Source: Dehalococcoidia bacterium (lineage in GTDB: Bacteria > Chloroflexota > Dehalococcoidia > Lucifugimonadales > Australimonadaceae). From it: a stretch of 64,000 nucleotides of DNA. Position 1 is the first letter of the stretch. Every line of letters starts with the position of its first letter. The position numbers and the translations under genes were made by a program. Positions 1,561 through 49,932 of the stretch are shown in pieces. The DNA is taken from assembly GCA_034421335.1 (NCBI GenBank), contig DAOUKL010000073.1, positions 13,524-77,523 of the forward strand, written 5' to 3'. The notes under the pieces were generated by a model that saw nothing but the letters and a program-made list of their open reading frames with translations, was not told the origin of the DNA and did not search any database.

Positions 1561-3351
1561 TTACTGGTCCAGCCACACCGTCGCGAAGTCAAGGTTACGG
1601 CGGTAGTTGTCCACGGGCACCTGGATGCCCATCACGTACTCGCGGACGACCGTGTGCGTGTTCTCCGTGTACAGCGGCGCGGAGTAGACCATCTCCACGG
1701 CGAAGTACTGCTCCATCTCCCGCGCGATCGCGACCCGCTCCTCCAGTTCGGCCGCAGCAGCCAGGCGAACGAAGAACTCGTCCACCTTCGGGTCGTCGTG
1801 CTTCGGCTCAGCCGCGGCGTTCGTGCTGACGCTCGCGATGGTCGAGTAGTACTGGCTTGGCAGCGCCACCGTCGCTCCGCCGTGCTGCATGTCGTACGAA
1901 CCATCCAACGTCCTGGAAGCCCGCGTGGCGTCGTCCACGAGTTGGAGATCGACGCTGATGCCGAAGTCCTCCAGCTGGCCTGCTATCGGCTCGCACATGT
2001 GCACCCACAGCCTGCGGCACATGTATTCGAGGTCGAAGCCGTCCGGGTAGCCTGCTTCGGCCAGCAGCGCCTTCGCCTGCTCACGGTCCTCCGCCTTGGT
2101 CGCAGGGTTCCAGCCCGGCGATTCCATGAGGCCGGGGGTCGCCCATAGGGTGTCCGGGTCGAACATGCCGACTCGCTTGGCGAAGCCGCCGAACGTCACC
2201 TGGATGAGTTCCTCGCGGTCGAGCCAGAGGTGTATCGCGCGCCTGACCCGAACGTCCTTTATCGGGCCCTCACGGATGGAGTTGAAGGCGAGCGGTATGA
2301 AGCTCGACTGGCCCATCTCCAGTATCGTCACCCTCTCGGGCCCGAGGGTGGAGAGAATGGCCGCTTCACGCTCGGGGGTCAACTGGAACCCGCCGCCGCG
2401 GGCCGTGGCGTCCAGGCGTCCCGTGCGGAACGCCGTGTCCATGCCGGACTGGTCCGGCGTGATGTAGAAGTCGATGCCGTCCAGGTAGGGAAGCTGGTTC
2501 CCGTTCTCGTCCGTCATGTAGTACTGCTCGAACCGGCGCACCTCGGCGACGCTGCCGGGCCGGTACTCCTGCAGGTAGAACGGGCCGAGTCCGACGAGCC
2601 CAATGTCCAAGGGGGTGACGTTGACGTTCCCCGCATCGATCTCGGGTTGCATCAGGTGCCGCGGGTGCTGGATGAGTTGGTTGTCGACGGCCAGCAACTG
2701 GTCGAAGTCGGAGACGGGGCTCGTGAGGTTGATGACGACGGTAAGGTCGTCCGGGGCCTCGATGCTCTCCACCCACGGGACGAAGTCCCAGTTCGCGGGG
2801 CGCCGCGAGTTCTCTCCGACCGTTACGCCGAAGACCATGAGGTCCAGCCAGAACTTCACGTCGGGAGCGGTGAATTTCACGCCGTCGTGCCAGTACACGT
2901 CGTCGCGGAGCGTGAAGGTCCAGGACGTCTTGTCGTCGTTCGAGGACCACTCGGTTGCGACGCCGGGACAGATCGACGCGCCATCGTCCCAGCACTGGCG
3001 GATCATGTTCCCCATGCCGAAGATCGAGCCTCCCGGCTGGAGGATGCTGATGGTGCCTGAGCGGGACGCGTCCCAGCCCAAGGGCGGGTCCGCGCGGGTC
3101 GAGAACCTGGCGATGCCGCCGTAGCGGTCCGACGTGTCCTCCATAGCCATCGCTGTCGGCGTCGGCGTGGGTTCGGGCCCCATGGCGTCCGACGGGGTGG
3201 GAGTCGGCTCAGGCGCCTCCTCCACGGGGGCCGTGGTCGGGGTCGGGGTTGCGGTCGGGTCTTCCGACGCGCAAGCGGCCAGCACTAGAGCCAGAATGGA
3301 GATGCTCGCCAGGAGCATCAGGGGTTTGAACGCGCGCTTTCCAATGGTCAT
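1561..3351 (-). CDS. ABC transporter substrate-binding lipoprotein, family 5 (peptide/nickel type), copy 1
   Basis: 596 aa. It has a signal peptide with lipobox LVLAAC|ASE, a Pro/Thr-rich linker, then an SBP_bac_5-like body (YWHDGVKFTAPDVKF...). It lies upstream of the permeases in the same operon. Confidence 0.9.
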   Translation of the reverse strand: MTIGKRAFKPLMLLASISILALVLAACASEDPTATPTPTTAPVEEAPEPTPTPSDAMGPEPTPTPTAMAMEDTSDRYGGIARFSTRADPPLGWDASRSGTISILQPGGSIFGMGNMIRQCWDDGASICPGVATEWSSNDDKTSWTFTLRDDVYWHDGVKFTAPDVKFWLDLMVFGVTVGENSRRPANWDFVPWVESIEAPDDLTVVINLTSPVSDFDQLLAVDNQLIQHPRHLMQPEIDAGNVNVTPLDIGLVGLGPFYLQEYRPGSVAEVRRFEQYYMTDENGNQLPYLDGIDFYITPDQSGMDTAFRTGRLDATARGGGFQLTPEREAAILSTLGPERVTILEMGQSSFIPLAFNSIREGPIKDVRVRRAIHLWLDREELIQVTFGGFAKRVGMFDPDTLWATPGLMESPGWNPATKAEDREQAKALLAEAGYPDGFDLEYMCRRLWVHMCEPIAGQLEDFGISVDLQLVDDATRASRTLDGSYDMQHGGATVALPSQYYSTIASVSTNAAAEPKHDDPKVDEFFVRLAAAAELEERVAIAREMEQYFAVEMVYSAPLYTENTHTVVREYVMGIQVPVDNYRRNLDFATVWLDQ

Positions 3352-3365
3352 AGAGAACCTTCCTG

Positions 3366-3878
3366 CTATTGTTCCGGCTCAGCGGCCACGAAGGTGATCG
3401 GCGCCGTCGCCAAAGACCCCATGCTGCCTTCCGCTCTCACCGTGTACGTGCCCGGGCTGGAGTTGACGCGGTCCATCCTGAACCGCCCTCTCTGCGTGAG
3501 CACGAACGTTCCAAACTCGCTGGCGTCCGCGGCGCCGAGGGTTCCGGGGCCGTAGGCGTCCGTGTGGAAGATGATGAACACCGATTCGCCGGGGTGGAAA
3601 CCCCAACCGGTTACGGTGAACGTCCGCTCGGAGCCGATGGTGTAAGCGTCCTGATCGAGCGCGATGCCGGCGGCTGACGCCGGGGCAGGGTCGCCAGGCG
3701 GGCCTGCAGGGCCGTCGGCGCCCGCTGGCCCTGGAGGGCCGGCCGGGCCTGCGGCGCCCGCCGCGCCGGCGGCGCCGGCGGGACCCGCCGGCCCTCTCTC
3801 CCCCGGTTCGCCCTCGCACGCGAGGGCCGTCAGTGCGACGGCGAGCATCAGAACGCAAGCGATTGCCGAGATTCCCAT
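3366..3878 (-). CDS. Collagen-like (G-X-Y repeat) lipoprotein with a C-terminal globular domain, copy 1
   Basis: Start placed at MGISAIACVLMLAVALTALAC (lipobox), with a GAGGAAG Shine-Dalgarno upstream. 14 uninterrupted GXY triplets (GEPGERGPAGPAGAAGAAGAAGPAGPPGPAGADGPAGPPGDP) are followed by a domain of about 100 aa. The ORF track starts at 3923. Confidence 0.7.
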   Translation of the reverse strand: MGISAIACVLMLAVALTALACEGEPGERGPAGPAGAAGAAGAAGPAGPPGPAGADGPAGPPGDPAPASAAGIALDQDAYTIGSERTFTVTGWGFHPGESVFIIFHTDAYGPGTLGAADASEFGTFVLTQRGRFRMDRVNSSPGTYTVRAEGSMGSLATAPITFVAAEPEQ

Positions 3879-6431: not shown

Positions 6432-7823
6432 TCAGCGAATTCCGACCAACGCCCCGTTCGACGTCGCCACGTACACAGTGTCGCCGCCCACTGCGATGTC
6501 GTAGGCCGAGCCGACGCCGAGGTCGACGCGCCACTGCTCCGCGCCAGTCGCGGCGTCCAGCGCCACGACAAGGCCGGCGCTCCCGCCAACGACCACTTCC
6601 CCGCCACGAACGACGGGCGAGGTCGCCTCGGGCGCGCCGAGTTCCGCTCGCCACACGATCGCGCCGGTCTGACGGTCGTACGCGAACACCCGCCCTCCCG
6701 CCGTGCTCACGTACACGCGCTCCTCATCCACCGCGGGCGTTCCCGTGAAGCTTTCCCCCGGCTGGCTCACCACCCAGACAACGCCTTTCACCGGCGGCAA
6801 TTCGGCGGCCATTCCCCACCGGAACATCCACCGCCGAACGTTGCGCGCCGACTTCTCGAAAGGCCATTGCCGGTTGTTCCACTCCACGCGCCGGATCGTC
6901 CCGCCAACGTCCGCGGCGTACGCCGAGTCTTCCGCAATGGCGGCGGAACCGACAGCGAGCGCAATGTCGTAATCGAACCATCGTTTCGCCGTATGCCTGT
7001 CGATGAAGTGGATGAAGTTGTCCTGCGAGACCACGACCACGAGACGCTCGTTCACCGACGGCCCGGAAGTGACGCGCCCTCCGGTGGCGAAACTCCATCG
7101 CTCCTCGCCTGTGAGCGCGTCCAGCGCGTACAGCCGGCGGTCGTCCGCGCCGACGTAGAGGACGCCGTCCGCGATTGCAGGCGAGGAGCGCACCGGCGCG
7201 TCCGTCCGGAAACTCCATGCCTCGCCGCCGTTCTCACGGTGGAGCGCGACCACTCGTCCGCCGAGCGTCCCCAGGTAGACGAGGTCCCCGGCGACGGAGG
7301 GTGTTGCGCTCACCGGCGCCCCCAGGTGGCGACGCCACACCAGCGCGCCGTCCGAGGAGCTGAACGCGGACGCCGTACCGTCCGCCGCGCCCGCGTAGAC
7401 GACGCCGTCCTGCACCACTGCGCCCCCGCCCGGCGGAGCGCCGAGGTCGGCCTCCCAGGCGACCTCGCCCCTGAGCGGCGCGGCGGGCGTCGGCGCGGCC
7501 CCGGCGCGGCGCGGGCCGCCCCCTTCGGTCGGCCAATCTCCTTCTGAGAGGACGCTCGTCAACTCAGACGCAGGGGCGGGCAGAAAGCGCGCGGAGCCGA
7601 CGTTCTCGGCGGCAATCCACGCCGCGATCAGCAGCGCGAGCGCGGCGGCCGCCGCTCGTAAGGCCAGCCGTCGTCGCCGCGCACGGCGGCGCCACGCATC
7701 GGCGTCGGAGGAGCCATCCGCCGGCGTCAGGCGGGAGCGGCACGCCGCGCAGTAGCGCGCTCCAGCCTCGTTGACGCAGCCGCAGACGCGGCACGTCAAC
7801 GAGGAGGCGCCTAGCTCACTCAA
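6432..7823 (-). CDS. PQQ-like/BamB-type beta-propeller repeat protein with an N-terminal zinc ribbon and TM anchor
   Basis: Zinc ribbon CRVCGCVNEAGARYCAACRS, one TM helix (LALLIAAWIAA), then repeated blades of the form G.VYVG..DG.L.A.D..TG...W. Confidence 0.75.
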   Translation of the reverse strand: MSELGASSLTCRVCGCVNEAGARYCAACRSRLTPADGSSDADAWRRRARRRRLALRAAAAALALLIAAWIAAENVGSARFLPAPASELTSVLSEGDWPTEGGGPRRAGAAPTPAAPLRGEVAWEADLGAPPGGGAVVQDGVVYAGAADGTASAFSSSDGALVWRRHLGAPVSATPSVAGDLVYLGTLGGRVVALHRENGGEAWSFRTDAPVRSSPAIADGVLYVGADDRRLYALDALTGEERWSFATGGRVTSGPSVNERLVVVVSQDNFIHFIDRHTAKRWFDYDIALAVGSAAIAEDSAYAADVGGTIRRVEWNNRQWPFEKSARNVRRWMFRWGMAAELPPVKGVVWVVSQPGESFTGTPAVDEERVYVSTAGGRVFAYDRQTGAIVWRAELGAPEATSPVVRGGEVVVGGSAGLVVALDAATGAEQWRVDLGVGSAYDIAVGGDTVYVATSNGALVGIR

Positions 7824-20295: not shown

Positions 20296-20398
20296 GGAAC
20301 TCCTTCCGTCATTCCCGCGCCCTTCCGTCATTCCTGCGAAAGCAGGAATCTCGGCCCCCTCCCCCGAAGGGCAAGAGGGCGCGAAGCGCGCCCCCGCG
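20296..20398. repeat. Hairpin repeat cluster (half-A, A, C-like)
   Basis: ccgtcattcccgcgc..ccgtcattcctgcgaaagcaggaatctcg..gccccctcccccgaagggcaagagggcgcgaagcgcgc. Confidence 0.85.
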
Positions 20399-28177: not shown

Positions 28178-29099
28178 CTCTGCCACCCGTCCCGCATCCG
28201 TCGACGAACTGCAAACCGCGCTGCGCGGCGAGCTGTACGTCGCCGACCGCGGGCTCGCCATGTCCGCCTACCTTGCCCTCTCCCTCCAGCGCCCGCTCTT
28301 CCTCGAAGGCGAGGCCGGCGTCGGCAAGACCGAGGTCGCCAAGGCCCTCGCGTCAACCCTCGGCGCGCGCCTCATCCGCCTCCAGTGCTACGAGGGGCTG
28401 GACGTCAGCCAGGCCGTCTACGAGTGGAACTACTCCCGCCAGCTCCTCCACATCCGCCTGCTCGAGGCGGCCGGCGGCGTCGACCGCGAGCAGGCCGAGC
28501 AGGAGCTGTTCAGCGAGCAGTTCCTCATCAAGCGCCCCCTGCTGCAGGCGCTCGACGGCGAAGGCCCCACCGTCCTCCTCATCGACGAACTCGACCGCGC
28601 CGACGAGGAGTTCGAGGGCTACCTGCTCGAGATGCTCTCCGATTACCAGATCACCGTGCCCGAAATCGGGACCTACGAGGCCGCCGCCCCGCCGGTCGTC
28701 GTCATCACGTCGAACCGCACGCGCGAGGTGCACGACGCCCTCAAGCGCCGCTGCCTCTACTACTGGATCGACTACCCCGACCTCGACAAAGAACTCCAGA
28801 TCGTCCGCAGCAAGCTCCCCGACGCCCCCCAGAGCCTCACCGCCCAAGTCGTCGGGTTCGTCCAGGAGTTGCGCGGCGCCGAGCTCTACAAGCTCCCCGG
28901 AGTCGCCGAAACCCTCGACTGGACAGCCGCGCTCGTGAGCCTCAATGAAACCCGGCTCACCCCCGAAACCATCGACGAGACGCTCGGCATCCTCCTCAAG
29001 TACCGCGAGGACGTGCAGGCCGTCCGAGGCGAGCAGACCCGCGCGCTCCTCAACCGCGCCATGAACCGCGGCACGCAGCGCGGCGGCCGCCGTGGCTAG
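28170..29099 (+). CDS. coxD: MoxR-family AAA+ ATPase (CoxD-like)
   Basis: Walker A GEAGVGKTEVAKAL and Walker B VLLIDELDRAD; ...TSNRTREVHDALKRRC. GTG start. Confidence 0.9.
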   Translation: MTNSATRPASVDELQTALRGELYVADRGLAMSAYLALSLQRPLFLEGEAGVGKTEVAKALASTLGARLIRLQCYEGLDVSQAVYEWNYSRQLLHIRLLEAAGGVDREQAEQELFSEQFLIKRPLLQALDGEGPTVLLIDELDRADEEFEGYLLEMLSDYQITVPEIGTYEAAAPPVVVITSNRTREVHDALKRRCLYYWIDYPDLDKELQIVRSKLPDAPQSLTAQVVGFVQELRGAELYKLPGVAETLDWTAALVSLNETRLTPETIDETLGILLKYREDVQAVRGEQTRALLNRAMNRGTQRGGRRG

Positions 29100-30483
29100 C
29101 CAGTCCGGCCACATCCTCCACAACCTCCTCCTCTTCGGACGCCTCCTCCGAATGCTCGGACTCGACGTCCACCCCGGAAGAATGCTCGACGCCGTCCGCG
29201 TGCTCGACGATATCGGCCTCGCGCGCAAGGCCGACGTGCGCGCCGCTCTCCGCACTCTGCTCGTCCACCGGAGGGACGACCTCCCCGTGTTCGATGAGGC
29301 GTTCGACGTGTTCTGGCGTCAGCGCAAGGACAGCACGTCGACTCTCGACCTGCGCTCGATGGGCGAGCGCCGGCGCTACCGCAGCGTCGAGGCCGCCGCC
29401 CCTCCACCCGGCTCCGGCGAGGCGGTCGACGACGAGTCCGGCGCGGAGGATGCCGGCGACCAGGTCGTGCTCACGCGGACGTTCAGCGCCCGCGAGGTGC
29501 TCCGCACGCGCGACTTCGCGGAGTTCACGCCGGAGGAGACGGCGCAGGCGCGGCTCCTGCTCGCCGAACTCGCGTGGCGGCCCGGCCTTCGCCGCACCCG
29601 CCGCAAGCAGCCCGGCAGAGGCCCGGCGCTCGATCTCCGCAGAACGCTGCGGGCGAACGCCCGACTCGGCGGCGAGCCCGCCCGCCTCCTCCGGCTCCGG
29701 CGCAAGGAGAAGCCGCGCAGGCTGGTGGTCGTCTGCGACGTGAGCGGTTCGATGGAGCGTTACACTCGCATGCTCCTGCACTTCATCCACAGCCTCTACG
29801 GCGGACTCGACCGCCACGTCGAGGCCTTCCTGTTCGCCACCCGTCTCACCCGCGTCACCCGCCATCTCGCCCAACGCGACATTGACCGCGCCGTCGGCGA
29901 GGTCGCCAAGGCCGTGCCCGACTGGTCCGGCGGCACGCGCATCGGCCAGGCGCTCAAGGAGTTCAACTTCCGGTGGGCGCGCCGCACCCTCGGATGGGGC
30001 TCCGTCGTCCTCATCGTCTCCGACGGCTGGGACCGGGGCGACCCGGAACTGCTCGCCCGCGAGATGGAGCGCCTGCGGCGCAGCTGCAGCCGCCTCATCT
30101 GGCTCAATCCCCTCGCCGGCGCCGAGGCGTACGAGCCGTTGACGCAGGGGATGCGCGCCGCGTCCCCCTATGTTGACGACCTCCTGCCCGTGCACAACCT
30201 CGCCGCGCTCATCGACCTCGCCGAGCTCCTCAACACCCTCCCCACGCGCCACGCCCATACCACCCTCCCCACAAGAGGGGGGAGGGTCGAGCGCGAAGCG
30301 CGAGGGGAGAGGTCCGAGGGCCGCGCATCCGTCGTTCCTGCGAAAGCAGGAACCTCGCCCCCCTCTCCTACTCCGGAGGACAAGCCCGAGGGACAAACAG
30401 GACAACGCTCGTGGCACGCCGGCGCCAATCCCACCTTCCGCCACCCTCTCTGGGGCCGCGGCGACGACCGGCGGCGGGAATAG
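29092..30483 (+). CDS. coxE: VWA-domain protein (CoxE-like) with a repeat-encoded C-terminal tail
   Basis: MIDAS motif VVVCDVSGSM. N-terminus LLLFGRLLRMLGLDV is typical of CoxE. The last ~80 codons (from about 30240) read through hairpin repeat modules. Confidence 0.85.
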   Translation: MASQSGHILHNLLLFGRLLRMLGLDVHPGRMLDAVRVLDDIGLARKADVRAALRTLLVHRRDDLPVFDEAFDVFWRQRKDSTSTLDLRSMGERRRYRSVEAAAPPPGSGEAVDDESGAEDAGDQVVLTRTFSAREVLRTRDFAEFTPEETAQARLLLAELAWRPGLRRTRRKQPGRGPALDLRRTLRANARLGGEPARLLRLRRKEKPRRLVVVCDVSGSMERYTRMLLHFIHSLYGGLDRHVEAFLFATRLTRVTRHLAQRDIDRAVGEVAKAVPDWSGGTRIGQALKEFNFRWARRTLGWGSVVLIVSDGWDRGDPELLAREMERLRRSCSRLIWLNPLAGAEAYEPLTQGMRAASPYVDDLLPVHNLAALIDLAELLNTLPTRHAHTTLPTRGGRVEREARGERSEGRASVVPAKAGTSPPSPTPEDKPEGQTGQRSWHAGANPTFRHPLWGRGDDRRRE

Positions 30484-30636
30484 GGCGCATCCGGCCCCCT
30501 CCCCCGAAGACGGGGGAGGGCTGGGGTGAGGGCTTACGCGCGAAGCGTGCATCCGTCGTTCCTGCGAAAGCAGGAACCTCGCCCCCTCCCTGTCTCCCCC
30601 CTTGGGGGAGATGCCCGAAGGGCAGCGAGGGACGAA
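30240..30636. repeat. Mosaic hairpin repeat cluster (F,A,...,C,A,B), partly inside the coxE 3' end
   Basis: ccaccctccccacaagaggggggagggtcgagcgcgaagcgcgaggggagaggtccg, gtcgttcctgcgaaagcaggaacctcgcc (twice), ccggccccctcccccgaagacgggggagggctggggtgaggg, ctccccccttgggggagatgcccgaagggcag. Confidence 0.9.
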
Positions 30637-38682: not shown

Positions 38683-38962
38683 TTCCGTCATTCCCGCGAA
38701 GGCGGGAATCCATCCCCTTTCTCCCCCTGAGGGGGAGATGCCCGAAGGGCAGAGAGGGCATCCGGTTCCCTCCCCCGAAGTCGGGGGAGGGCTGGGGTGA
38801 GGGTTTACGCGCGAAGCGCGTCTCCGTCTCCCCCTGAGGGGGAGATGCCCGAAGGGCAGAGAGGGCATCCGGCCCCCTCCCCCGAAGTCGGGGGAGGGCT
38901 GGGGTGAGGGTTTGCGCCCGCTAGGGCGCGCTCCGTTCTCCCCCCTCGGGGCAGCGCGCGCA
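38683..38962. repeat. Mosaic hairpin repeat cluster (A,B,C,B,C,B-like)
   Basis: gtcattcccgcgaaggcgggaatccatcc, then two tandem B-C units (ctccccctgagggggagatgcccgaagggcagagagggcatccgg..cctcccccgaagtcgggggagggctggggtgaggg). Confidence 0.9.
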
Positions 38963-42115: not shown

Positions 42116-42157
42116 ATCGCGCCTGCGGCGCGTCACCCCACCATCCCTCCGGGGCTG

Positions 42158-42208
42158 CCCCCCACACCTGTGTGTGGGGGGGGGGGGGGGGGCGCAGGCC
42201 CCCCCCCC
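42158..42208. other. Homopolymer/hairpin region: CCCCCCACAC..GTGTGGGGGG hairpin running into G17, then C10
   Basis: G run at 42176-42192 (17 nt) and C run at 42199-42208 (10 nt), counted directly. Confidence 0.8.
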
Positions 42209-42315
42209 TTGCAGGCCTCGTCATCCTTGTGCCATAATACTGACATACCCCCAACACAACGCCACTACCGCGCGCGGATGAGCCGCCGGAGCCACCAGAG
42301 GCCCGGCGGCTCTTT

Positions 42316-42358
42316 CTATTCCCCCTCCCCCCGAGGGGGAGGGCCGGGGAGAGGGCAG
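42316..42358. repeat. Hairpin repeat module directly upstream of the terminase-like gene
   Basis: ccccctccccccgagggggagggccggggagagggcag. The same unit recurs at about 44005-44040. Confidence 0.8.
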
Positions 42359-42372
42359 AAAGGAGGACCGCC

Positions 42373-43896
42373 ATCGAACTCGAACGCTACCGCAACGACC
42401 CCCTCGGCTTCGTCCGCGATGTCCTCCACGAAGCAGGCGCCCCCTACCCCAAGCAGGAGGAGATGCTCATGGCCCTCGCCGCCGACAAGCGCAGAGTCTC
42501 CGTCGTCGGTTGCAACTCCTCCGGCAAGGACTGGGCCGCCGCACGCGCCATCATCTGGTGGATCGAGACACGACCCCAGGCCAAGGTCATCGTCTCCGGC
42601 CCCACCCTCCGGCAGGTGAAGGAGATCGTCTGGGACGAGCTCCGAGCAGCCCACGCAGCCTGCGGTCACCGCCTCGCCGGCGTCGTCCGCGCGGGCGAGT
42701 ACCGCGCTGGACCCGACCGCGTCGCGCTCTGCCTCACCTCCAACAACCAGCACAACCTGCAGGGCTTCCACTCCCCCGAGTTGCTCGTCGTCATCACCGA
42801 GGCGCAGGGCGTCAAGCAGGCGTACTTCGAGGCCCTCAAGCGCCTCAACCCCAAGAAGATGCTGCTGCTCGGCAACCCCCTCGCGCTCACCGGCGAGTTC
42901 TACGACTCCCATCACGGCAAGAGTCCGCTCTATGAGCGCGTCGAAATCTCCGCCTACGATTCCCCCAACGTTCAGCAGGGGCGCCTCGACGCCCTTCCCG
43001 GCCTCGTCACTCCCGAGGACGTCGACGAACGCCGCCGCGAGTGGGGCGAGGACTCCCCCCTCTACATCGCGTCCATCCTCGGACAGTTTCCGCCATCCCT
43101 CGAAGACTCCCTCACCTCCCGCGTCCACGTCGACGCCGCCGTCCAGCACTGGCTGCGCGAAACCCCGCCCGAAGCGGCGGGGGGCCTCCGTCATTCCCGC
43201 GCATCCTCCCGTCATTCCCGCGAAAGCGGGAATCTCGCAGCCTTCGCGGACGGGGGCGAGGTTCCTGCTTCCGCAGGAACGACGGAACCCGGCCGCACGT
43301 CTCCCGTCATTCCCGCGCAGGCGGGAATCCACTCTCCCCCGCTGGGGGAGATGCCCGAAGGGCAGAGAGGGCCCTGGCGCATGGGCGTCGACGTCGCGCG
43401 CTACGGCGCCGACAAGTCGATTATCTGCCTGCGACGCGGCCACCGAGTCGAACGGCTCATCGCCTTCGAGAAGATGGACACCATGCGGCTCGCCGGCGAG
43501 GTCCGCGACATCGCCGAGGCCCTCGGTGTCCCGGCGGTGTTCGTCGACGAGACCGGCGTCGGCGGTGGGGTGGTCGACCGCCTGAAGGACTTGTGCGTCC
43601 CCGTCATCGGCGTCGAGGCAGGCGGCAGGGCCTACCGCCCCTCCCAGTTCGCCGACCTGCACGCCGAGACGTACTGGGAGGTCGCGCGGCGTCTGCGCGA
43701 GGGCGACATCTCCCTCCCGCCCGACGACGAGCTCGCGGGGCAGCTGCTCGCGCAGCGCTACGAGGTCTCCACCACGGGGCGCATCCACCTCGACAGCAAG
43801 GCCAAACTGCGGAGGAAGGGCGTCGCTTCCCCCGACCGCGCCGACGCCCTCGCCCTCGCCTTCATGGAGCCCCCCTCCATGCAGATATGGTTCTAG
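42373..43896 (+). CDS. Phage terminase large subunit-like protein (ATPase + RNase H-like nuclease), orphan, with a repeat-derived insertion
   Basis: Walker A VVGCNSSGKD and Walker B-like LLVVITEAQG. Nuclease half MGVDVARYGADKS...VFVDETGVGGGVVD...SPDRADALALAF. The track ORF starts at ATG 42463, but the conserved N-terminus (IELERYRNDPLGFVRDVL..PKQEEML) continues upstream in frame to an ATC at 42373, 6 nt after AAGGAGG. Confidence 0.7.
   Translation: MELERYRNDPLGFVRDVLHEAGAPYPKQEEMLMALAADKRRVSVVGCNSSGKDWAAARAIIWWIETRPQAKVIVSGPTLRQVKEIVWDELRAAHAACGHRLAGVVRAGEYRAGPDRVALCLTSNNQHNLQGFHSPELLVVITEAQGVKQAYFEALKRLNPKKMLLLGNPLALTGEFYDSHHGKSPLYERVEISAYDSPNVQQGRLDALPGLVTPEDVDERRREWGEDSPLYIASILGQFPPSLEDSLTSRVHVDAAVQHWLRETPPEAAGGLRHSRASSRHSRESGNLAAFADGGEVPASAGTTEPGRTSPVIPAQAGIHSPPLGEMPEGQRGPWRMGVDVARYGADKSIICLRRGHRVERLIAFEKMDTMRLAGEVRDIAEALGVPAVFVDETGVGGGVVDRLKDLCVPVIGVEAGGRAYRPSQFADLHAETYWEVARRLREGDISLPPDDELAGQLLAQRYEVSTTGRIHLDSKAKLRRKGVASPDRADALALAFMEPPSMQIWF
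43160..43375. repeat. Hairpin repeat modules (A,A,inverted A,A,B) lying inside the terminase-like ORF
   Basis: ccgtcattcccgcgc, ccgtcattcccgcgaaagcgggaatctcgc, ggttcctgcttccgcaggaacgacgg, ccgtcattcccgcgcaggcgggaatccac, tctcccccgctgggggagatgcccgaagggcagagagggcc. Confidence 0.9.
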
Positions 43897-43911
43897 GCCA
43901 TGCAGGCCAGT

Positions 43912-44150
43912 CCCACCCTCCCCACAAGAGGGGGGGAGGGTCGAGCGAAGCGAGGGGAGAGGTCCGGAGGAGGTCGGGGGAGACTTTTCCGGCCCCCTCC
44001 CCCCGAGGGGGAGGGCCGGGGAGAGGGCAGAGGAGGTCGGGGGAGAGAATCGCAGTTGCAGGCGGCGCGCTTCGCCCTCTCTGCCCTTCGGGCATCTCCC
44101 CCTCAGGGGGAGAAATCGGAAGCCCCGACTTCGGGGGCGGGGGGAGGGGA
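43912..44150. repeat. Mosaic hairpin repeat cluster (F, B/C variants in both orientations)
   Basis: cccaccctccccacaagagggggggagggtcgagcgaagcgaggggagaggtccgg, ccctccccccgagggggagggccggggagagggcag, ccctctctgcccttcgggcatctccccctcagggggaga (inverted B). Confidence 0.9.
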
Positions 44151-44213
44151 CCGGACGCCGCTCAGCGAGCCGGATGCGCTATCCTGCTAGTCCACCCCTG
44201 CAAGGAGTTTCCA

Positions 44214-45530
44214 GTGGCCACGCCTCTTGCTTCCAAAGTGTTTCCGCGCACCGCAGCCGTCAACGACGCCGGACGCCTGGAGATAGGCGGGTGCGATGTC
44301 GCCGACCTGGTCCGTGAGTTCGGCGCCCCCCTGTACGTGTTCGACGAGGCGACGCTGCGCGCGCAGGCCGAGGGCTTCCTCGGCGCGTTCCGCTCGCGCT
44401 ACCCCGAAAGCCGCGTCGTCTACGCCTGCAAGGCGTTCATCAACGTCGGCTTGGCGCGCTACTTCGCCGGCCTCGGGCTCGGGTTCGACGTCGTGTCGGG
44501 CGGCGAACTGGCCGTGCTGAAGGCAGCGGGCGTCGACCTCTCGACGGTCGACTTCCACGGCAACAACAAGACGCCGCAGGAGATCCGCGAGGCCGTCGAG
44601 TGGGGCGTCGGTCACTTCGTCATCGACAGCTTCCACGAGCTCGCCGTCCTCAACGAGGAGGCGGGCGCGGCGGGGCGCGCGCAACCCGTCCTCATCCGCG
44701 TATCGCCGTCCATCGACCCGCACACGCACCGGCTGACGACCACGGGCGTCCTCGACAGCAAGTTCGGGTTCCCGATCGAAACGGGACAGGCCGAGCAGGC
44801 CGTGCGCGAGGCGATGGCGGCGCCGAACCTGGACCTGCAGGGGCTGCATTTCCACCTGGGCTCGCCCATCTTCGAACTGGAGCCCTACACGGAGGCGGTC
44901 GAGCGCGTGCTGCGGTTCGCCGCCCAGATGCGCGAGCACGGGCTGGAGATGCGGCGGTTCAGCCCCGGCGGCGGCTTCGCCATCGCCTACACGGAGAACG
45001 ACGACCCGCCCTCGCAGGACGCCTACGCCGAGGCTATCGTCGGCGCGCTGCTCGAAGGCTGTGAGGCGCACGGCCTGCCCCGTCCGGAACTCACCATCGA
45101 GCCGGGCCGCTCGCTCTCCGGCCCGGCCGGCGTGGCCGTCTACACCGTCGGCGCCATCAAGGAGATCCCCGGCGTCCGCACCTACGTCTCGGTCGACGGC
45201 GGCATGGGCGACAACATCCGTCCGGCGCTGTACGGCGCGCGCTATATCGCCCTCGCGGCGACCCGCGCGTCCGCCCCTGCTGACCAGACGGTCACCATCG
45301 CCGGAAAGTACTGCGAATCGGGCGACGTGCTGGTTACGGACGCGGCGCTCGCCCGTGTCGAGGCCGGCGACCTCATCGCCATTCCCGCATCCGGCGCCTA
45401 CGCGCCGGCGATGGCGAGCGCGTACAACCTCAACGGCAGGCCCGCCATCGTGATGGCCGCCGGCGGAGAGGCGGCGCTCATCCGAAGGCGGGAGTCGTAC
45501 GCCGACATGATGGCCCAGGACGTCGTGTAG
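44214..45530 (+). CDS. lysA: Diaminopimelate decarboxylase
   Basis: GTG at 44214, 6 nt after AAGGAG. Motifs YVFDEATLR, YACKAF (PLP Lys), FSPGGGFAI, YCESGD. The upstream part of track ORF 43041.. is repeat and terminase sequence. Confidence 0.9.
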   Translation: MATPLASKVFPRTAAVNDAGRLEIGGCDVADLVREFGAPLYVFDEATLRAQAEGFLGAFRSRYPESRVVYACKAFINVGLARYFAGLGLGFDVVSGGELAVLKAAGVDLSTVDFHGNNKTPQEIREAVEWGVGHFVIDSFHELAVLNEEAGAAGRAQPVLIRVSPSIDPHTHRLTTTGVLDSKFGFPIETGQAEQAVREAMAAPNLDLQGLHFHLGSPIFELEPYTEAVERVLRFAAQMREHGLEMRRFSPGGGFAIAYTENDDPPSQDAYAEAIVGALLEGCEAHGLPRPELTIEPGRSLSGPAGVAVYTVGAIKEIPGVRTYVSVDGGMGDNIRPALYGARYIALAATRASAPADQTVTIAGKYCESGDVLVTDAALARVEAGDLIAIPASGAYAPAMASAYNLNGRPAIVMAAGGEAALIRRRESYADMMAQDVV

Positions 45531-45531
45531 C

Positions 45532-46560
45532 GTGCTGCGCCTCCACGGGCAGGAGCTGGCCGTCCGCGCCCTCGAACGCTCGCTCGCGGGGGGGCGTCTG
45601 CGCCACGCCTACCTGTTCGCTGGCCCCGCCCACCTTGGAAAGACGACGCTCGCGCTGCAACTGGCGCAGGCGCTGAACTGTACGGACCCCGCGCCGCCGT
45701 GCGGCGCCTGCGGCCCCTGCGCGCGCGTCGCCTCCGGCGTCCACGCTGACGTGCAGCAGATCAGCGTCGACCCCGAGGCGGCGGAGGGGCCGCGCACCGT
45801 CATCGGCATCGAGTCCGTCCGCGACCTCATCGGCTCGGCGCACCTGCGCCCCTACGAGGGCCGCACCCGCGTGTTCGTCATCCACGGCGCCGACCGAATG
45901 AGCCAGGACGCCGCCAACGCGCTGCTCAAGGTGCTGGAGGAGCCGCCGCCCGACGTGGCGATACTGCTGGTGAGCGACAACCCGGGCGCCATTCTTCCGA
46001 CCGTGCGCTCGCGCTGCCAGACGCTCGATTTCTCGCCGCTGCCCGTCGACGAGGTCGCGCGGATCCTGCGCGACGAGGAGGGCGCGCCCGCCGAACACGC
46101 GGAAGTGCTGGCCCGGCTCTCCCGAGGGTGCGTCGGCTGGGCCATCGGCGCGGCGCGCGACGACACGCAGTTCGCCGCCGTGCACCAGCGCCTCGAACGC
46201 ATCGCCGACGCCGCCGAGGGCGGCCTCGAGGCGCGGTTCGGCTACGCCGACGACCTAGCGCGCCGCTTTCAGCGCGACCGCGCCGCCGGACGGGAGGAAC
46301 TGCAACTGTGGCTGCGGTGGGTGCGCGACCTGCTGCTCGTGCAGCACGGACAGACCGACCGCATCGTGAACCTCTCGTGGCGCGAGACGCTCGAACGGCA
46401 GGCGGCGGCGCTCACTCCGGCCCAGGTAGTGCGATGGGCGCACGAGATCATGCAGACCATCGAGCGCCTGGAGCGCAACGCGAACCCTCGCCTGGCCCTC
46501 GAAGCGCTGATGCTCGAAACGCCGCGCGCCAAATTGACAAGCGCGGCGGGCGAGCGATAG
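45532..46560 (+). CDS. holB: DNA polymerase III delta' subunit
   Basis: RLRHAYLFAGPAHLGKTTLALQLAQALNC..PCGACGPC; VFVIHGADRMSQDAANALLKVLEEPP. Confidence 0.85.
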   Translation: MLRLHGQELAVRALERSLAGGRLRHAYLFAGPAHLGKTTLALQLAQALNCTDPAPPCGACGPCARVASGVHADVQQISVDPEAAEGPRTVIGIESVRDLIGSAHLRPYEGRTRVFVIHGADRMSQDAANALLKVLEEPPPDVAILLVSDNPGAILPTVRSRCQTLDFSPLPVDEVARILRDEEGAPAEHAEVLARLSRGCVGWAIGAARDDTQFAAVHQRLERIADAAEGGLEARFGYADDLARRFQRDRAAGREELQLWLRWVRDLLLVQHGQTDRIVNLSWRETLERQAAALTPAQVVRWAHEIMQTIERLERNANPRLALEALMLETPRAKLTSAAGER

Positions 46561-46563
46561 AAC
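46534..46563 (+). promoter_or_regulatory. Sigma70-like promoter for Rieske paralogue 4 (inside the holB 3' end)
   Basis: TTGACA (46534-46539), 18 nt, then TAGAAC (46558-46563). The alternative reading is a 17-nt spacer with ATAGAA. Confidence 0.35.
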
Positions 46564-46597
46564 GCTCCTATACGACTACGACGACAGGAGTCCCGCT

Positions 46598-47869
46598 GTG
46601 CTCTCAGTACACGACAACGAACGGCTCACCCGCGTCGGGCCGGGCACGCCCATGGGCGAGGTGATGCGGCGCTACTGGCAGCCCGTTTTCATCTCGCACG
46701 AACTGCCGCATCCCGACTGCGACCCTCTCCGCGTCCGCATCCTCGGCGAGGACCTCGTCGCCTTCCGCGACTCGTCGAACCGCGTCGGGCTCGTCAGCGA
46801 GTGGTGCCCCCACCGGCTCACGTCGCTCTTCCTCGGGCGCAACGAGGAAAACGGCATCCGGTGCGTGTATCACGGGTGGAAGTTCGACGTAACCGGCGCG
46901 TGCGTGGACATGCCGAACGAGCCGGCGCAGTACGACTTCAGCCGCAAGGTGCGCCTGACCGCCTACCCCACGGTCGAACTCGGCGGCGTGGTCTGGGCGT
47001 ACATGGGGCCGAAGGAGCACACGCCGCCGGAGCCGAGCTTCGAGTTCGTGCGGCAGCCCCAGACTCACCGCCACGCCTCGAAGGTCATCGAGGAGTGCAA
47101 CTGGCTGCAGGCGCTCGAAGGCGGCATCGACTCCGTGCACTCGTCGTTCCTGCACCGCAAGTTCGGCAAGGGAGGAGCGGCAGGCCTCGACGGCCTCCGC
47201 GCCGAGGGCGTCGCCTCGAAGCTCGAGGTGGAGCCGACCGACTACGGCTACCGGTACGGCTCGATACGGGCGCTGCCGGGCAAAGACGCCAACTATGTGC
47301 GGACCTACCACTTCGTGATGCCGCACGTGCAGATACGCGCGGCGCAGCTCAACAACGACGGCTCGTGGTTCAAGTTCAAGATCGCCGGGCACCACTGGGT
47401 GCCCATGGACGACCACCGGACGATGGTGTGGAACTGGTTCTACACGCTCGACGAGCCGCTCTCGCAGGCCGAGCGCGACGAGCTGCTCAACGGGAACGGC
47501 CCGGACGCCGTCGATCAGACGACGTTCCGGAGCATCGGCAACCCGCGCAACAACTGGCTGATCGACCGGGAACTGCAACGGACGGACACCTTCACGGGCA
47601 TCAAGGGCATCAACGCGCAGGACAGGGCGGTGCAGGAGGCGATGGGGCCGATCGTCGACCGGAGCCAGGAGCACCTGGGGCAGACGGACCGCGCGGTCAT
47701 CACCGCGCGCAAGATGCTGCTGCAGGCGGTGCGCGCGGTGGAGGACGGCGGGGCTCCGCTGGGGGCGAACGACGCGTACTACCACATTCGGGCCATCGAG
47801 GAAGTGCTGCCCAGCAGCGTCCGCTGGCAGGACGCGCTGATGGACCGGATGCACGTCGGCGCCGCATAG
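46598..47869 (+). CDS. Rieske non-heme iron oxygenase alpha subunit, phthalate-dioxygenase family (paralogue 4)
   Basis: CPHRLTSLFLG...CVYHGWKF; CNWLQALEGGIDSVHSSFLH; GTG start; N-terminus LSVHDNERLTRVGPGTPMGEVMRRYWQP. Confidence 0.9.
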   Translation: MLSVHDNERLTRVGPGTPMGEVMRRYWQPVFISHELPHPDCDPLRVRILGEDLVAFRDSSNRVGLVSEWCPHRLTSLFLGRNEENGIRCVYHGWKFDVTGACVDMPNEPAQYDFSRKVRLTAYPTVELGGVVWAYMGPKEHTPPEPSFEFVRQPQTHRHASKVIEECNWLQALEGGIDSVHSSFLHRKFGKGGAAGLDGLRAEGVASKLEVEPTDYGYRYGSIRALPGKDANYVRTYHFVMPHVQIRAAQLNNDGSWFKFKIAGHHWVPMDDHRTMVWNWFYTLDEPLSQAERDELLNGNGPDAVDQTTFRSIGNPRNNWLIDRELQRTDTFTGIKGINAQDRAVQEAMGPIVDRSQEHLGQTDRAVITARKMLLQAVRAVEDGGAPLGANDAYYHIRAIEEVLPSSVRWQDALMDRMHVGAA

Positions 47870-47880
47870 GCGCTCCCTCA

Positions 47881-49122
47881 GTGCGCCCCAGACTGTTCTA
47901 CGGTTGGACTGTCGTCAGTGTGCTGGGCGTGTTCGGCGCCGTGGGCGTCGGGCTCGCCGGCGCCAACTTCGCGCTGTTCATCGGGCCGATGTCCGGGGAA
48001 CTGGGGTGGAGCGCGTCCACGTTCGGCTGGGCGGTGTTCGTCCGCCTGGCGATGATCCTCGCCGCCGGCCCGGTGATCGGGCGCATCCTCGACCTGCGCG
48101 GCCCGCGCCTGCCGGTGCTGGTCGCCACGCTCGTTGCAGGCGGCCTCACGCTCTGGCTGTCGCGCGTCGGGGCGGTGTGGGAGCTTATGCTCGCGTTCGC
48201 CGTGATGGGTCTCGTGGGCATGGGCCGTGCGAACGACCTGCAGGCGAGCGCTCCGGCGGCGCAGTGGTTCGTGCGCAGGCGCGGGCTGGCGATGGGCATC
48301 GCGCTGGCGGGCACGCCGCTCGGCGTGGCGGTCTACTACCCGCTCACGCAACTGTTCATCGACGTGTACGGCTGGCGCGACGCGCTCTCCATCCTCGCGG
48401 TCTCCGGGACGCTCGTGGTCGTTCCGCTGGCGTTCCTGCTGCGTCGCCGCCCGGAGGACATGGGCCTCGCGCCGGACGGCGGCGCTCCGTCTACGACGGC
48501 GCGGGCAGGCGCGCGGGGCGGAGCATGGGTAGACGAGCGATCGCTCACGCGCGGGCAGGCGCTGCGGACGGGCAGGTTCTGGCTCATGCTCGCAGGGTTC
48601 ACCGCGCTCACCTACGGGCTCTCGACGCTCACCATCTTCCGAGTGCCGCACTTCATCGAGCGGGGCCTGAGCCCGTCGCTCGTGGCGGCGGCGATCGCGG
48701 TCGACGCGGTGGTCGCCATCGTTGCGAGCATTGCGCTGGGGAGAGCGCTCGACCGCCTGCCATCGCGGGGCGTGCTGGCGGCGGGGCTGGCCGCCGCGGC
48801 GTTCTGCGCCGTCGGCCTGATCGTGGTGGACGGCGTCTTCTGGCTGTTCGCGGCGAATATCGGGTACGCGCTGGGGTTCCAGATAACGCACGTTGCGCAG
48901 GGCGTGATGTGGGCCGACCAGTTCGGCAGGGCGCACCAGGGCGACATTCGAGGGCTGACTATCCCAGTAACCGTGGGCGTGGGGGCGCTGGCGTTCCCTG
49001 TCACCGGCTACCTGCGCGACGAGGCGGGCGTCTACACGCCCGCCTGGGTCGTTTCGATAGCGCTGCTGGTCGTCGCCGGGGCGCTGCTAGCCGCCGTGCG
49101 GCCTGCAGTTACTCGGCGTTGA
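47881..49122 (+). CDS. MFS transporter (oxalate/formate-antiporter-like architecture)
   Basis: GTG at 47881. N-terminus RPRLFYGWTVVSVLGVFGAVGVGLA, about 12 TM. The upstream part of track ORF 46801.. is an alternative frame of the Rieske gene. Confidence 0.8.
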   Translation: MRPRLFYGWTVVSVLGVFGAVGVGLAGANFALFIGPMSGELGWSASTFGWAVFVRLAMILAAGPVIGRILDLRGPRLPVLVATLVAGGLTLWLSRVGAVWELMLAFAVMGLVGMGRANDLQASAPAAQWFVRRRGLAMGIALAGTPLGVAVYYPLTQLFIDVYGWRDALSILAVSGTLVVVPLAFLLRRRPEDMGLAPDGGAPSTTARAGARGGAWVDERSLTRGQALRTGRFWLMLAGFTALTYGLSTLTIFRVPHFIERGLSPSLVAAAIAVDAVVAIVASIALGRALDRLPSRGVLAAGLAAAAFCAVGLIVVDGVFWLFAANIGYALGFQITHVAQGVMWADQFGRAHQGDIRGLTIPVTVGVGALAFPVTGYLRDEAGVYTPAWVVSIALLVVAGALLAAVRPAVTRR

Positions 49123-49846
49123 GCTCGGCTTCCCAGTCGACAGCCTCGCGTCCGATGGACTCGAGCACGGCGTTGACGAACAGTTCGTCGGGCACGGCGC
49201 CGACGAACTCGGACTGGTCGTTGATGATGGTCTTGGGGACGCCCATCACCTGGTAGCGCCGGGACATTTCGGGGAACTCCGACGCCTCGATGACCTCCGC
49301 CTTGACGCGAGGGTTGGCGACGGCGAATGCGTGGGCCGCACGGGCCACACGAGGGCAGTGGGGTCAGGTGGGGGTTACGAACACGCGCAGATGGACGTCC
49401 TGGTCGATGCGATCGCGCACGGCGGCGGCGACGCCATCGCGCAGGAGCGGTTCGGAGTTGGAGAGGGACTCGATGCCGGCGAGGATGGTGGGGAACTCGT
49501 TGCCGACGGGAGCGCCATAGAACCGCACCCGGCCGTCGCTGCCGTCGAGCACAACGGCGGGGATCTGCTCGATCTGGAGCCGGCGGGCCTCCTCAGCGCC
49601 ATCGCCGTGAACGTCGAGCACTTCAAGCGAGAGCTTGGGGGAGGTTTCGACGAGCTCGGTCAGCAGTTCGCGGGTGAGCTTGGCGAACTCACCTGCGCCG
49701 CCGGGGGCGGGTTCGGGGCGTCCGGGGATGGTGAGCATGCTGCGGACGTCGGACTCAGTGAAGAGGAGCATGCGGACGTCGTCGTTGAGAGTCTCGGCGA
49801 AGCGGTCTTCTATCGCCTTGCGGTCTTCTTCTCGCAGGTGGGGCAT
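49109..49846 (-). CDS. Two-domain glutaredoxin/thioredoxin-like protein disulfide oxidoreductase; candidate selenoprotein (in-frame TGA at 49366-49364)
   Basis: Track ORFs 49364..50050 and 49109..49348 are in the same frame, separated by TGA plus 5 codons. The joined sequence reads ...HLRVFVTPT-[TGA]-PHCPRVARAAHAFAVANPRVKAEVIEASEFPEMSRRYQVMGVPKTIIN, so the TGA occupies the first Cys of the CPxC redox motif. Start set at ATG 49846 (GAGGAG Shine-Dalgarno). Confidence 0.55.
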
Positions 49847-49932
49847 GGGATGTACTCCTCGATGTGCGCCGCGCGCGGCGGGTGGACGGTTGATTCGTTG
49901 GACAGGGGGATTGTACACGTCGCAGGCAAGAG

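Follow-up and report, generated by a model that had tools for sequence, protein, structure and literature searches.

The window analysed here, a stretch of 64,000 nucleotides from a Dehalococcoidia bacterium (contig DAOUKL010000073.1, assembly GCA_034421335.1), contains an open reading frame (ORF) of 507 codons whose product resembles the large subunit of phage terminases (TerL). Between its ATPase and nuclease domains lies an in-frame insert of 70 codons (window 43162-43371, 210 nt), of which about 77% consists of copies of hairpin modules dispersed in the intergenic regions across the window. It is very probable that palindromic modules, similar to repetitive extragenic palindromes (REP) and bacterial interspersed mosaic elements (BIME), accumulated in the flexible linker of a functional chromosomal TerL-like protein and that the translated insert is a neutral spacer. 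This would be tolerated exonisation rather than pseudogenisation. A preliminary description of the same DNA had proposed that hairpin elements were exonised into this linker, and the proposal was supported by TerL-fold flanks, a disordered loop, homologues free of repeats and orthologues in both empty and filled states.

Repeat modules in the inter-domain linker

Recurring sequence covers 43184-43373 and belongs to three module families. The A family (consensus ccGTCATTCCCGCGnnnGCGGGAATc, variant GTCGTTCCTGC) forms 15 hairpins in the window, the B family (consensus TCTCCCCCnnnGGGGGAGATGCCCGAAGGGCAGAGAGGGC) occurs at eight window sites with at most three mismatches, and the C family is a C-rich/G-rich hairpin. 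Expected numbers were taken from dinucleotide-preserving shuffles, and the observed excess ranged from 19-fold to more than 300-fold: GTCATTCCCGCG was found at 14 window sites with at most one mismatch (0.75 expected), ATTCCCGCNNNNGCGGGAAT at 11 sites with at most two (0.03 expected) and ATGCCCGAAGGGCAGAG at eight sites with at most three (0.23 expected). The modules of the insert are 93-100% identical to intergenic copies (blastn, insert against window), and some of their combinations recur as well. The composite of a half-A and an A module is also present at 50020-49969 (94% over 53 nt) and at 20305-20353, and an A module followed by a B module is found in intergenic DNA at 38686-38770. Pattern scans and blastn of the insert upheld the order half-A, A, inverted A, A and B given in the preliminary description (Table 1).

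The peptide quoted in that description is the exact frame-1 translation of the ORF, which is open from 42244 to 43896 and ends with a TAG stop (43894-43896), and both flanking domains are in one stop-free frame, as had been stated. A portion of the predicted insert translation is SPVIPAQAGIHSPPLGEMPEGQR; the insert is most likely read in frame as a protein spacer, a prediction made from the sequence. All three forward frames are open across it, in agreement with the earlier remark that GC-rich modules tend to be open in any frame and that frame keeping is the informative point. At a single locus, only the length modulo three is informative. As single-stranded DNA the insert would fold into five to six hairpins (z -3.8). 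Throughout the window, 13 of the 15 A modules are on the plus strand (13:2), whatever the direction of the neighbouring genes, which suggests a replication-strand or single-strand bias.

Two further observations concern translated repeats. An ORF on the plus strand (29092-30483) enters repeat modules at its 3' end (30260-30483; ...GRVEREARGERSEGRASVVPAKAGTSPPSP...) and may be another gene whose C-terminal tail derives from repeats. Two PHROGs families annotated as unknown function, phrog_23885 and phrog_15355, match only the repeat-derived insert (protein residues 281-341) and probably represent translated hairpin repeats, not real proteins.

That the insert is located in the linker between a terminase ATPase and its nuclease, as the preliminary description had it, was confirmed by several comparisons of the host protein. 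It matches phrog_2, terminase large subunit (PHROGs, E-value 5e-35), and the family profile detected TerL nuclease domains in PDB (8dkr, 1e-5; Sf6 gp2, 9e-4). Foldseek with the AlphaFold model retrieved full-length Sf6 gp2 (5e-17), the ATPase domain of P74-26 TerL (5e-4) and, for the nuclease domain, 8dkr (E217 TerL nuclease; 2.6e-12, rmsd 2.8). Pfam gave no match for the whole protein and a sub-threshold match to Terminase_6N only after the insert was removed, while NCBIfam and PADLOC returned nothing and Rfam chance-level matches only. The nuclease acidic residues D339, D391, D487 and D490 are invariant. In the ATPase domain GKD and hhhhTE are invariant, and the aspartate of Walker B is replaced by threonine throughout the TerL-like family, including its prophage copy. 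The residues of low model confidence (Table 1) are placed by AlphaFold between the last ATPase helix and the first nuclease strand (RMGVDV), and the insert is thus modelled as a disordered inter-domain loop. In four relatives of ~550 residues (P0060, P0062, P0071 and P0072), an N-terminal helix-turn-helix (PF01381) is fused to the TerL-like body.

Table 1 Features of the TerL-like unit in the window, and GIY-YIG genes in related loci
Feature	Position	Strand	Remarks
Promoter-like element	42209..42238	+	TTGCAG (42209-14), 18-nt spacer with TG at 42230-31, CATAAT (42233-38)
Leader hairpin GAGCCGCCGG..CCGGCGGCTC (13-bp) and T-run	42280..42319	+	invariant in alignment A2; between promoter and ribosome-binding site
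C-type module (CCCCCTCCCCCCGAGGGGGAGGGCCGGGGAGAGGGC)	42320..42357	+	inserted in the 5' leader of the window copy
Shine-Dalgarno AAGGAGGA and ATC (probable start)	42360..42375	+	Shine-Dalgarno 42360-67, 5 nt (ACCGCC after AGGAGG core), ATC 42373-75
N-terminal ATPase domain	42373..43161	+	Walker A-like GCNSSGKDW; Walker B-like LLVVITE
Insert	43162..43371	+	stands in place of the ancestral linker of 7-18 residues; residues 267-327 with pLDDT <50
Hairpin CCCCGCC-cgaagc-GGCGGGG (7-bp)	43163..43182	+	C-like design, no copy elsewhere in the window
Half-A module	43188..43201	+	CCGTC head and left arm ATTCCCGCG, no right arm
A module CGTCATTCCCGCGAAAGCGGGAATCTCG	43210..43237	+	NTS consensus with one mismatch; SRM pattern matched
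Inverted A' module (GTTCCTGC / GTCGTTCCTGCGGAAGCAGGAAC variant)	43252..43287	-	97% to 30328-30362 and 30552-30586; hairpin 43261-43280
A module CGTCATTCCCGCGCAGGCGGGAATCCAC	43305..43332	+	NTS consensus with one mismatch; SRM pattern matched
B module TCTCCCCCGCTGGGGGAGATGCCCGAAGGGCAGAGAGGGCC	43333..43373	+	two small hairpins; directly adjoins the conserved PWRMGVD motif
C-terminal RNase H-like nuclease domain	43372..43896	+	invariant acidic residues in GVDVA, VFVDETG and SPDRADALA; TAG stop
GIY-YIG gene	L040 ~3257-3722
GIY-YIG gene	L046 ~2841-3351
GIY-YIG gene	L049 ~2658-3006
GIY-YIG gene	L053 ~176-566	-

We compared the linker with that of relatives, using for the genomic comparison the best 80 loci (L006-L085; 467 stretches were confirmed overall). 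Viral relatives from IMG/VR (32-50% identity) have a linker fixed at 21 nt (7 residues) in 71 of 76 cases, and a portal gene adjoins 47 of the 76 (45 of the 71 with a 21-nt linker). Between the same two anchor points, the genomic linkers measure 36-357 nt. Homologues free of repeats have a linker of 7-18 residues and no sequence equivalent to the insert, contrary to one of the findings named beforehand as able to overturn the exonisation proposal. The longer linkers are lineage-specific arrays of hairpin modules in frame, read as VIPAQAGT, VVPAEAGTSQP, RHSRESGNPEWP, EVPASAGTTE (inverted A), CHSERSAAEPRNLS or PLPEGEGRGEG. Within these linkers, A modules show a strand bias of 36:6 and a frame bias of 26:8:2, and the reading V-I/V-P-A-x-A-G is used by 26 of the 36 forward copies. 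Among distinct genomic linkers, 77 of 78 are stop-free and a multiple of three, as are 58 of the 59 longer than 57 nt, which have 41 distinct lengths; these counts overstate the number of events, because paralogy and gene conversion make the loci non-independent. For comparison, windows of 210 nt in the repeat-rich flanks are stop-free in only 40% of cases.

Orthologous loci, defined across species by shared flanks, keep the different states of the linker side by side. One group has linkers of 54, 54, 57, 75, 75, 105 and 198 nt, the sites of 54-57 nt being empty and those of 75, 105 and 198 nt filled, with a decaying module among them, and another has eight different arrays. In L002, the syntenic ortholog of the window gene with the same neighbours (metallo-beta-lactamase (MBL) hydrolase, lysA and holB), a C, a B' and an A module followed by the ancestral tail stand instead of the window array.

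The opposite direction, in which a native low-complexity linker gave rise to the dispersed repeats, would account for the sequence identity between linker and repeats, the only observation in its favour. We give it almost no credence: copies of these modules number in the hundreds between the genes of many genomes (genomic loci L006-L085, 725 kb in all, contain 262; a narrower pattern gave 280 in 850 kb with the window and L001-L005 included), the A type matches a motif known from Neisseria and other phyla, and phage relatives as well as many chromosomal ones lack the modules.

Purifying selection, decay and assembly

Both domains flanking the insert are under purifying selection. Compared with L002, the ratio of nonsynonymous to synonymous divergence (dN/dS) amounts to 0.098 in the ATPase domain and 0.06 in the nuclease domain, similar to that of the neighbouring housekeeping genes (lysA 0.12, holB 0.11, MBL hydrolase 0.10), and pairs of paralogues give 0.03-0.09. 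All family-invariant residues, including the catalytic ones, are kept in the window copy. The first step of pseudogenisation, which the preliminary description had offered as the alternative to exonisation, is therefore not supported, and the 77 of 78 linkers in frame also argue against it. In a gene that is becoming a pseudogene, the frame would have been kept by chance (one in three) across GC-rich modules that rarely contain stops. This would agree with the three open forward frames, with the lack of a canonical start ahead of the conserved N-terminus, with the frameshifted 121-nt linker in two copies on OZ252088.1 (L047 and L048, at 0.20 and 2.71 Mb) and with frameshifts elsewhere in L033-L037, P0010 and P0046. 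We nevertheless consider it very unlikely, given the dN/dS values, the invariant residues and the in-frame expanded linkers, and because the Shine-Dalgarno sequence and an ATC codon are invariant in the subclade, which makes the missing ATG a trait of the family.

The two broken copies are 99.1% identical over exactly the stretch from promoter to stop codon plus 15 nt (1623 nt) and have unrelated flanks, which points to a broken allele that was recently duplicated or spread by gene conversion. Further tracts of 99% identity with sharp ends, again from promoter to stop codon, were found in L022/L024, L035/L037 and L030/L036. The synonymous divergence of the TerL-like gene (42376-43893) from L002 is 0.26, above the 0.13-0.19 of the flanking genes, and fits conversion from diverged paralogues. 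Inside its nuclease domain, L002 also has 17 residues (DEVRDIAEALGVPAVFV, ~7030-7080) duplicated in tandem and in frame.

It is highly improbable that the insert is an assembly artefact, created by short reads of repeat modules wrongly joined inside the gene. The sequence does come from a metagenome assembly, the modules are high-copy, and the homopolymer runs just upstream of the promoter (42172-42209, ~17 G followed by ~10 C) differ in length between two assemblies. However, an independent assembly from another sample (L001) is 99.83% identical to window 42136-49896 (7.8 kb) and encodes the identical insert peptide, relatives whose chromosomes are complete and based on long reads (OZ and OY records) have analogous arrays at the same linker site, and a random join would be in frame only one third of the time.

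Several observations weigh against the accumulation of mobile modules in a translated linker. The preliminary description had the insert made entirely of modules, which holds for the ~77% of recognisable repeat; the segments 43156-43183, 43239-43251 and 43288-43300, ~23% of the insert, have no counterpart in the window by blastn. Target-site duplications, which had been suggested as a check, were sought around the insert and none was found, nor was a clean insertion boundary, and in the best comparison of an empty with a filled site the module replaces 21 nt and is not simply added. The mobility attributed to the modules is suggested by their distribution. No mobilising enzyme was identified in the window by a scan for GIY-YIG motifs, with REP-associated tyrosine transposases (RAYT) not searched for. 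Translation of the insert is read from the sequence, no in-frame ATG, GTG or TTG is present between the stop ending at 42243 and position 42463, and the loci that supply the in-frame counts are, as said, partly copies of one another.

A miniature inverted-repeat transposable element (MITE) does not fit the insert, given the lack of a target-site duplication, the single hairpins of 14-41 nt and the replacement seen between empty and filled sites. An 8-nt direct repeat, GCCCGAAG, is part of the module consensus sequences and not a target-site duplication.

A solitary TerL-like gene family and its surroundings

The TerL-like unit of the window (42205-43896) and its relatives (loci L002-L085) form a solitary, multi-copy, vertically inherited family in Dehalococcoidia. 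Among the best 80 loci, the family is confined to Dehalococcoidia and SAR202 bins, with two to eight or more copies per genome at positions that different species have in common. Within 4 kb, none of these loci has a portal, protease or capsid gene, and in the five further loci, inspected via gene tables, phage genes occur in L005 only. A phage terminase residing in a prophage was accordingly ruled out by the neighbours and by the lack of a portal or protease homologue. In a neighbour-joining tree the solitary copies form one clade whose sole other member is L005, a prophage-embedded TerL in a Dehalococcoidia chromosome with ~66% identity.

Every solitary copy has a linker of at least 18 residues, compared with 7 in phage relatives. 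Linker length that is free in the former and fixed in the latter suggests a shift away from packaging, and from this lack of constraint we infer that the protein may no longer be a packaging motor. Like phage TerL proteins (Sf6 gp2, E217 TerL and P74-26 TerL), the family has an ATPase and an RNase H-like nuclease fold with the catalytic acidic residues. Unlike them, its genes are solitary, present as two to eight or more paralogues per genome at conserved positions, free in linker length and equipped with a promoter of their own, a leader resembling a terminator and ATC as the probable start codon.

The unit is not an active insertion sequence: it lacks terminal repeats, its copies are mostly 86-93% identical, and their positions are common across species. 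Neither terminal inverted repeats nor target-site duplications were found around the gene unit, and copies that are 99% identical are better read as the result of gene conversion than of transposition. A search for an empty site with lysA in metagenomes yielded only relatives of at most 73% identity. No clean empty site was found among them; three lysA relatives have an adjacent MBL hydrolase and no TerL-like gene, but in another orientation.

Homology among 12 copies at unrelated loci (alignment A2) starts at the sigma-70-like promoter, whose columns are invariant, and stops a few bases past the stop codon. In most paralogues the first promoter hexamer is TTGACA, followed by a spacer of ~17 nt and CATAAT; a consensus promoter scan did not flag the window copy. 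The leader hairpin with its T-run looks like a terminator. Its RNA fold has -34.4 kcal/mol (z -4.9), and it is also present in L011 and L009 (z range -3.6 to -4.9). A module at the position of the leader module of the window copy is found only in L006 and L014; L002 has a different module there and the other eight copies of the alignment have none. In the aligned copies, ~6 nt separate a strong Shine-Dalgarno sequence from an invariant ATC, and CCATCGA is invariant in the 12 copies. Conserved residues (ELERYRNDPLGF...) precede the first ATG, and the ATC at 42373-75 is a probable non-canonical start codon, although gene callers use an internal AGGAGG and the ATG at 42469.

A modules are ~3.2 times enriched beside TerL-like genes (0.74 against 0.23 per gene side in L006-L085). 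This comparison covers 400 nt downstream and 500 nt upstream, with control genes from the same loci, and replaced a density per intergenic base that could not be relied on, since the coding mask is misled by ORF-rich repeats. The flanking modules are co-oriented with the TerL-like gene (56:5 and 54:8), in contrast to those beside control genes (19:18 and 10:18). Practically no A modules occur in 600 kb of related lysA loci without a TerL-like gene or in 629 kb of viral contigs, a comparison confounded by lineage and GC content.

A gene for a single-domain GIY-YIG protein of 97 residues (PF01541, 3e-15) was detected in four related loci, 0.3-1 kb upstream of the TerL-like gene (Table 1). Same-strand GTCATTCYGAGCG..GAGGAATC hairpins bracket it in all of these but L053; when located in TerL-like linkers, this module type is read as CHSERSAAEPRNLS. 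No ssnA-like gene turned up when the 64-kb window was scanned for GIY-YIG motifs.

Two readings would give the repeats a role beyond that of a neutral spacer. In the first, the array is adaptive, either because its hairpins pause transcription or translation, because they provide sites at which recombination or gene conversion diversifies paralogues, or because a non-packaging function needs a long spacer. The minimum of 18 linker residues in all solitary copies, the strong hairpins of the insert mRNA (-119 kcal/mol, z -2.9), the arrays shared by paralogues via conversion tracts and the enriched, co-oriented modules in the flanks are in line with this. We judge it unlikely, as the arrays differ freely in composition and length, those of orthologues included, without any conserved module type or position, and decayed modules in some copies (L027 and L029) are as expected of neutral turnover.

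The second, which we regard as quite unlikely, is that the family is a domesticated terminase acting on hairpin repeats, for example an ATP-driven translocase-nuclease that processes or spreads NTS-like hairpins or cruciforms. The enrichment and co-orientation of modules in the flanks, their near absence where there is no TerL-like gene, the relaxed linker, and the tight control of expression that the leader and probable ATC start would imply are compatible with it. If it were true, the repeats in and around the gene would be its own substrates and not passengers, and this would be a third partnership of repeat and enzyme beside RAYT/REPIN and SsnA/NTS.

Relation to known repeats and significance

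The A-type module is, by its sequence, indistinguishable from the Neisseria hairpin NTS and the Ssn-related motif (SRM). Using the NTS consensus (CGTCATTCCCGCGMAVGCGGGAATCYRG) and the degenerate SRM pattern of PMC11893778, we found that both complete A modules of the insert match the consensus with one mismatch each and also match the pattern. SRM-type motifs have been described in Neisseria and other phyla, and NTS/SRM hairpins are bound and cut as single strands by SsnA, a GIY-YIG nuclease of 94 residues whose gene is typically bracketed by them (PMC11893778). The modules share with NTS, dRS3 and SRM repeats an oriented head plus hairpin, and the bracketing of three of the relatives' four GIY-YIG genes by same-strand SRM-like hairpins resembles the Neisseria arrangement NTS-ssnA-NTS; we set these genes beside SsnA by domain and layout. 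In contrast, the main text of PMC11893778 contains neither Chloroflexota nor translated copies within genes. Another study regards this Neisseria hairpin as a REPIN (bioRxiv 10.1101/2021.07.10.451892). Similar to REP, BIME and REPIN sequences, the modules are short palindromes clustered in mosaics of several types and orientations. REPs, however, are extragenic by definition, and the modules here are mostly single and co-oriented rather than in inverted pairs.

Palindromic repeats that lie in frame within genes have precedents in the Rickettsia palindromic elements (RPEs; Ogata et al. 2000, as summarised in PMC10969869) and in a scattering of intragenic MITEs; RPEs are single elements of ~150 bp found in frame in many unrelated genes. 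As with RPEs, dispersed palindromic repeats are fused in frame, some homologues have no insert, and the repeats lie where the fold tolerates them. As expected of RPE-like insertion, the TerL-like gene shows a dispersed repeat, a kept frame, insert-free homologues and purifying selection, with the insert predicted to be translated. The modules differ from RPEs in that they are 14-41 nt long and arranged in a mosaic array, that one linker of one gene family was filled repeatedly with different arrays, and that the host is a free-living or symbiotic member of the Dehalococcoidia, not an obligate intracellular bacterium; there is also no sequence relationship between RPEs and the window modules. 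New here are the short REP/NTS-type mosaic, a single linker that was filled time and again, the survival of empty states, the phylum and the host gene. In the literature that could be searched, neither the solitary TerL-like family nor these repeats in Dehalococcoidia were found described.

For the neutral accumulation of modules that we favour, we propose the following course. Modules spreading through intergenic DNA would also land in the TerL-like linker, by the same strand-specific process on single-stranded DNA as between genes, and the strand bias of A modules (13:2 in the window, 36:6 in linkers) would fit such a process. A first module would make the site a target for more, and the linker, being disordered, would tolerate any length. 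Arrays would then grow, shrink and exchange, with gene conversion between paralogues spreading them, and selection on both flanking domains would remove those that are out of frame or contain stops. It may also favour, mildly, the V-I/V-P-A-x-A-G reading frame.

The linker is a natural experiment on how selfish hairpin repeats turn into protein, with dozens of copies of one linker, empty states that were kept, and a filter for the reading frame. With it, the range of translated palindromic repeats widens from Rickettsia to Chloroflexota, and that of NTS/SRM-type hairpins to coding sequence. The finding also exposes a TerL-derived family as solitary, conserved and multi-copy chromosomal genes, whose freedom in linker length points to a function other than packaging.

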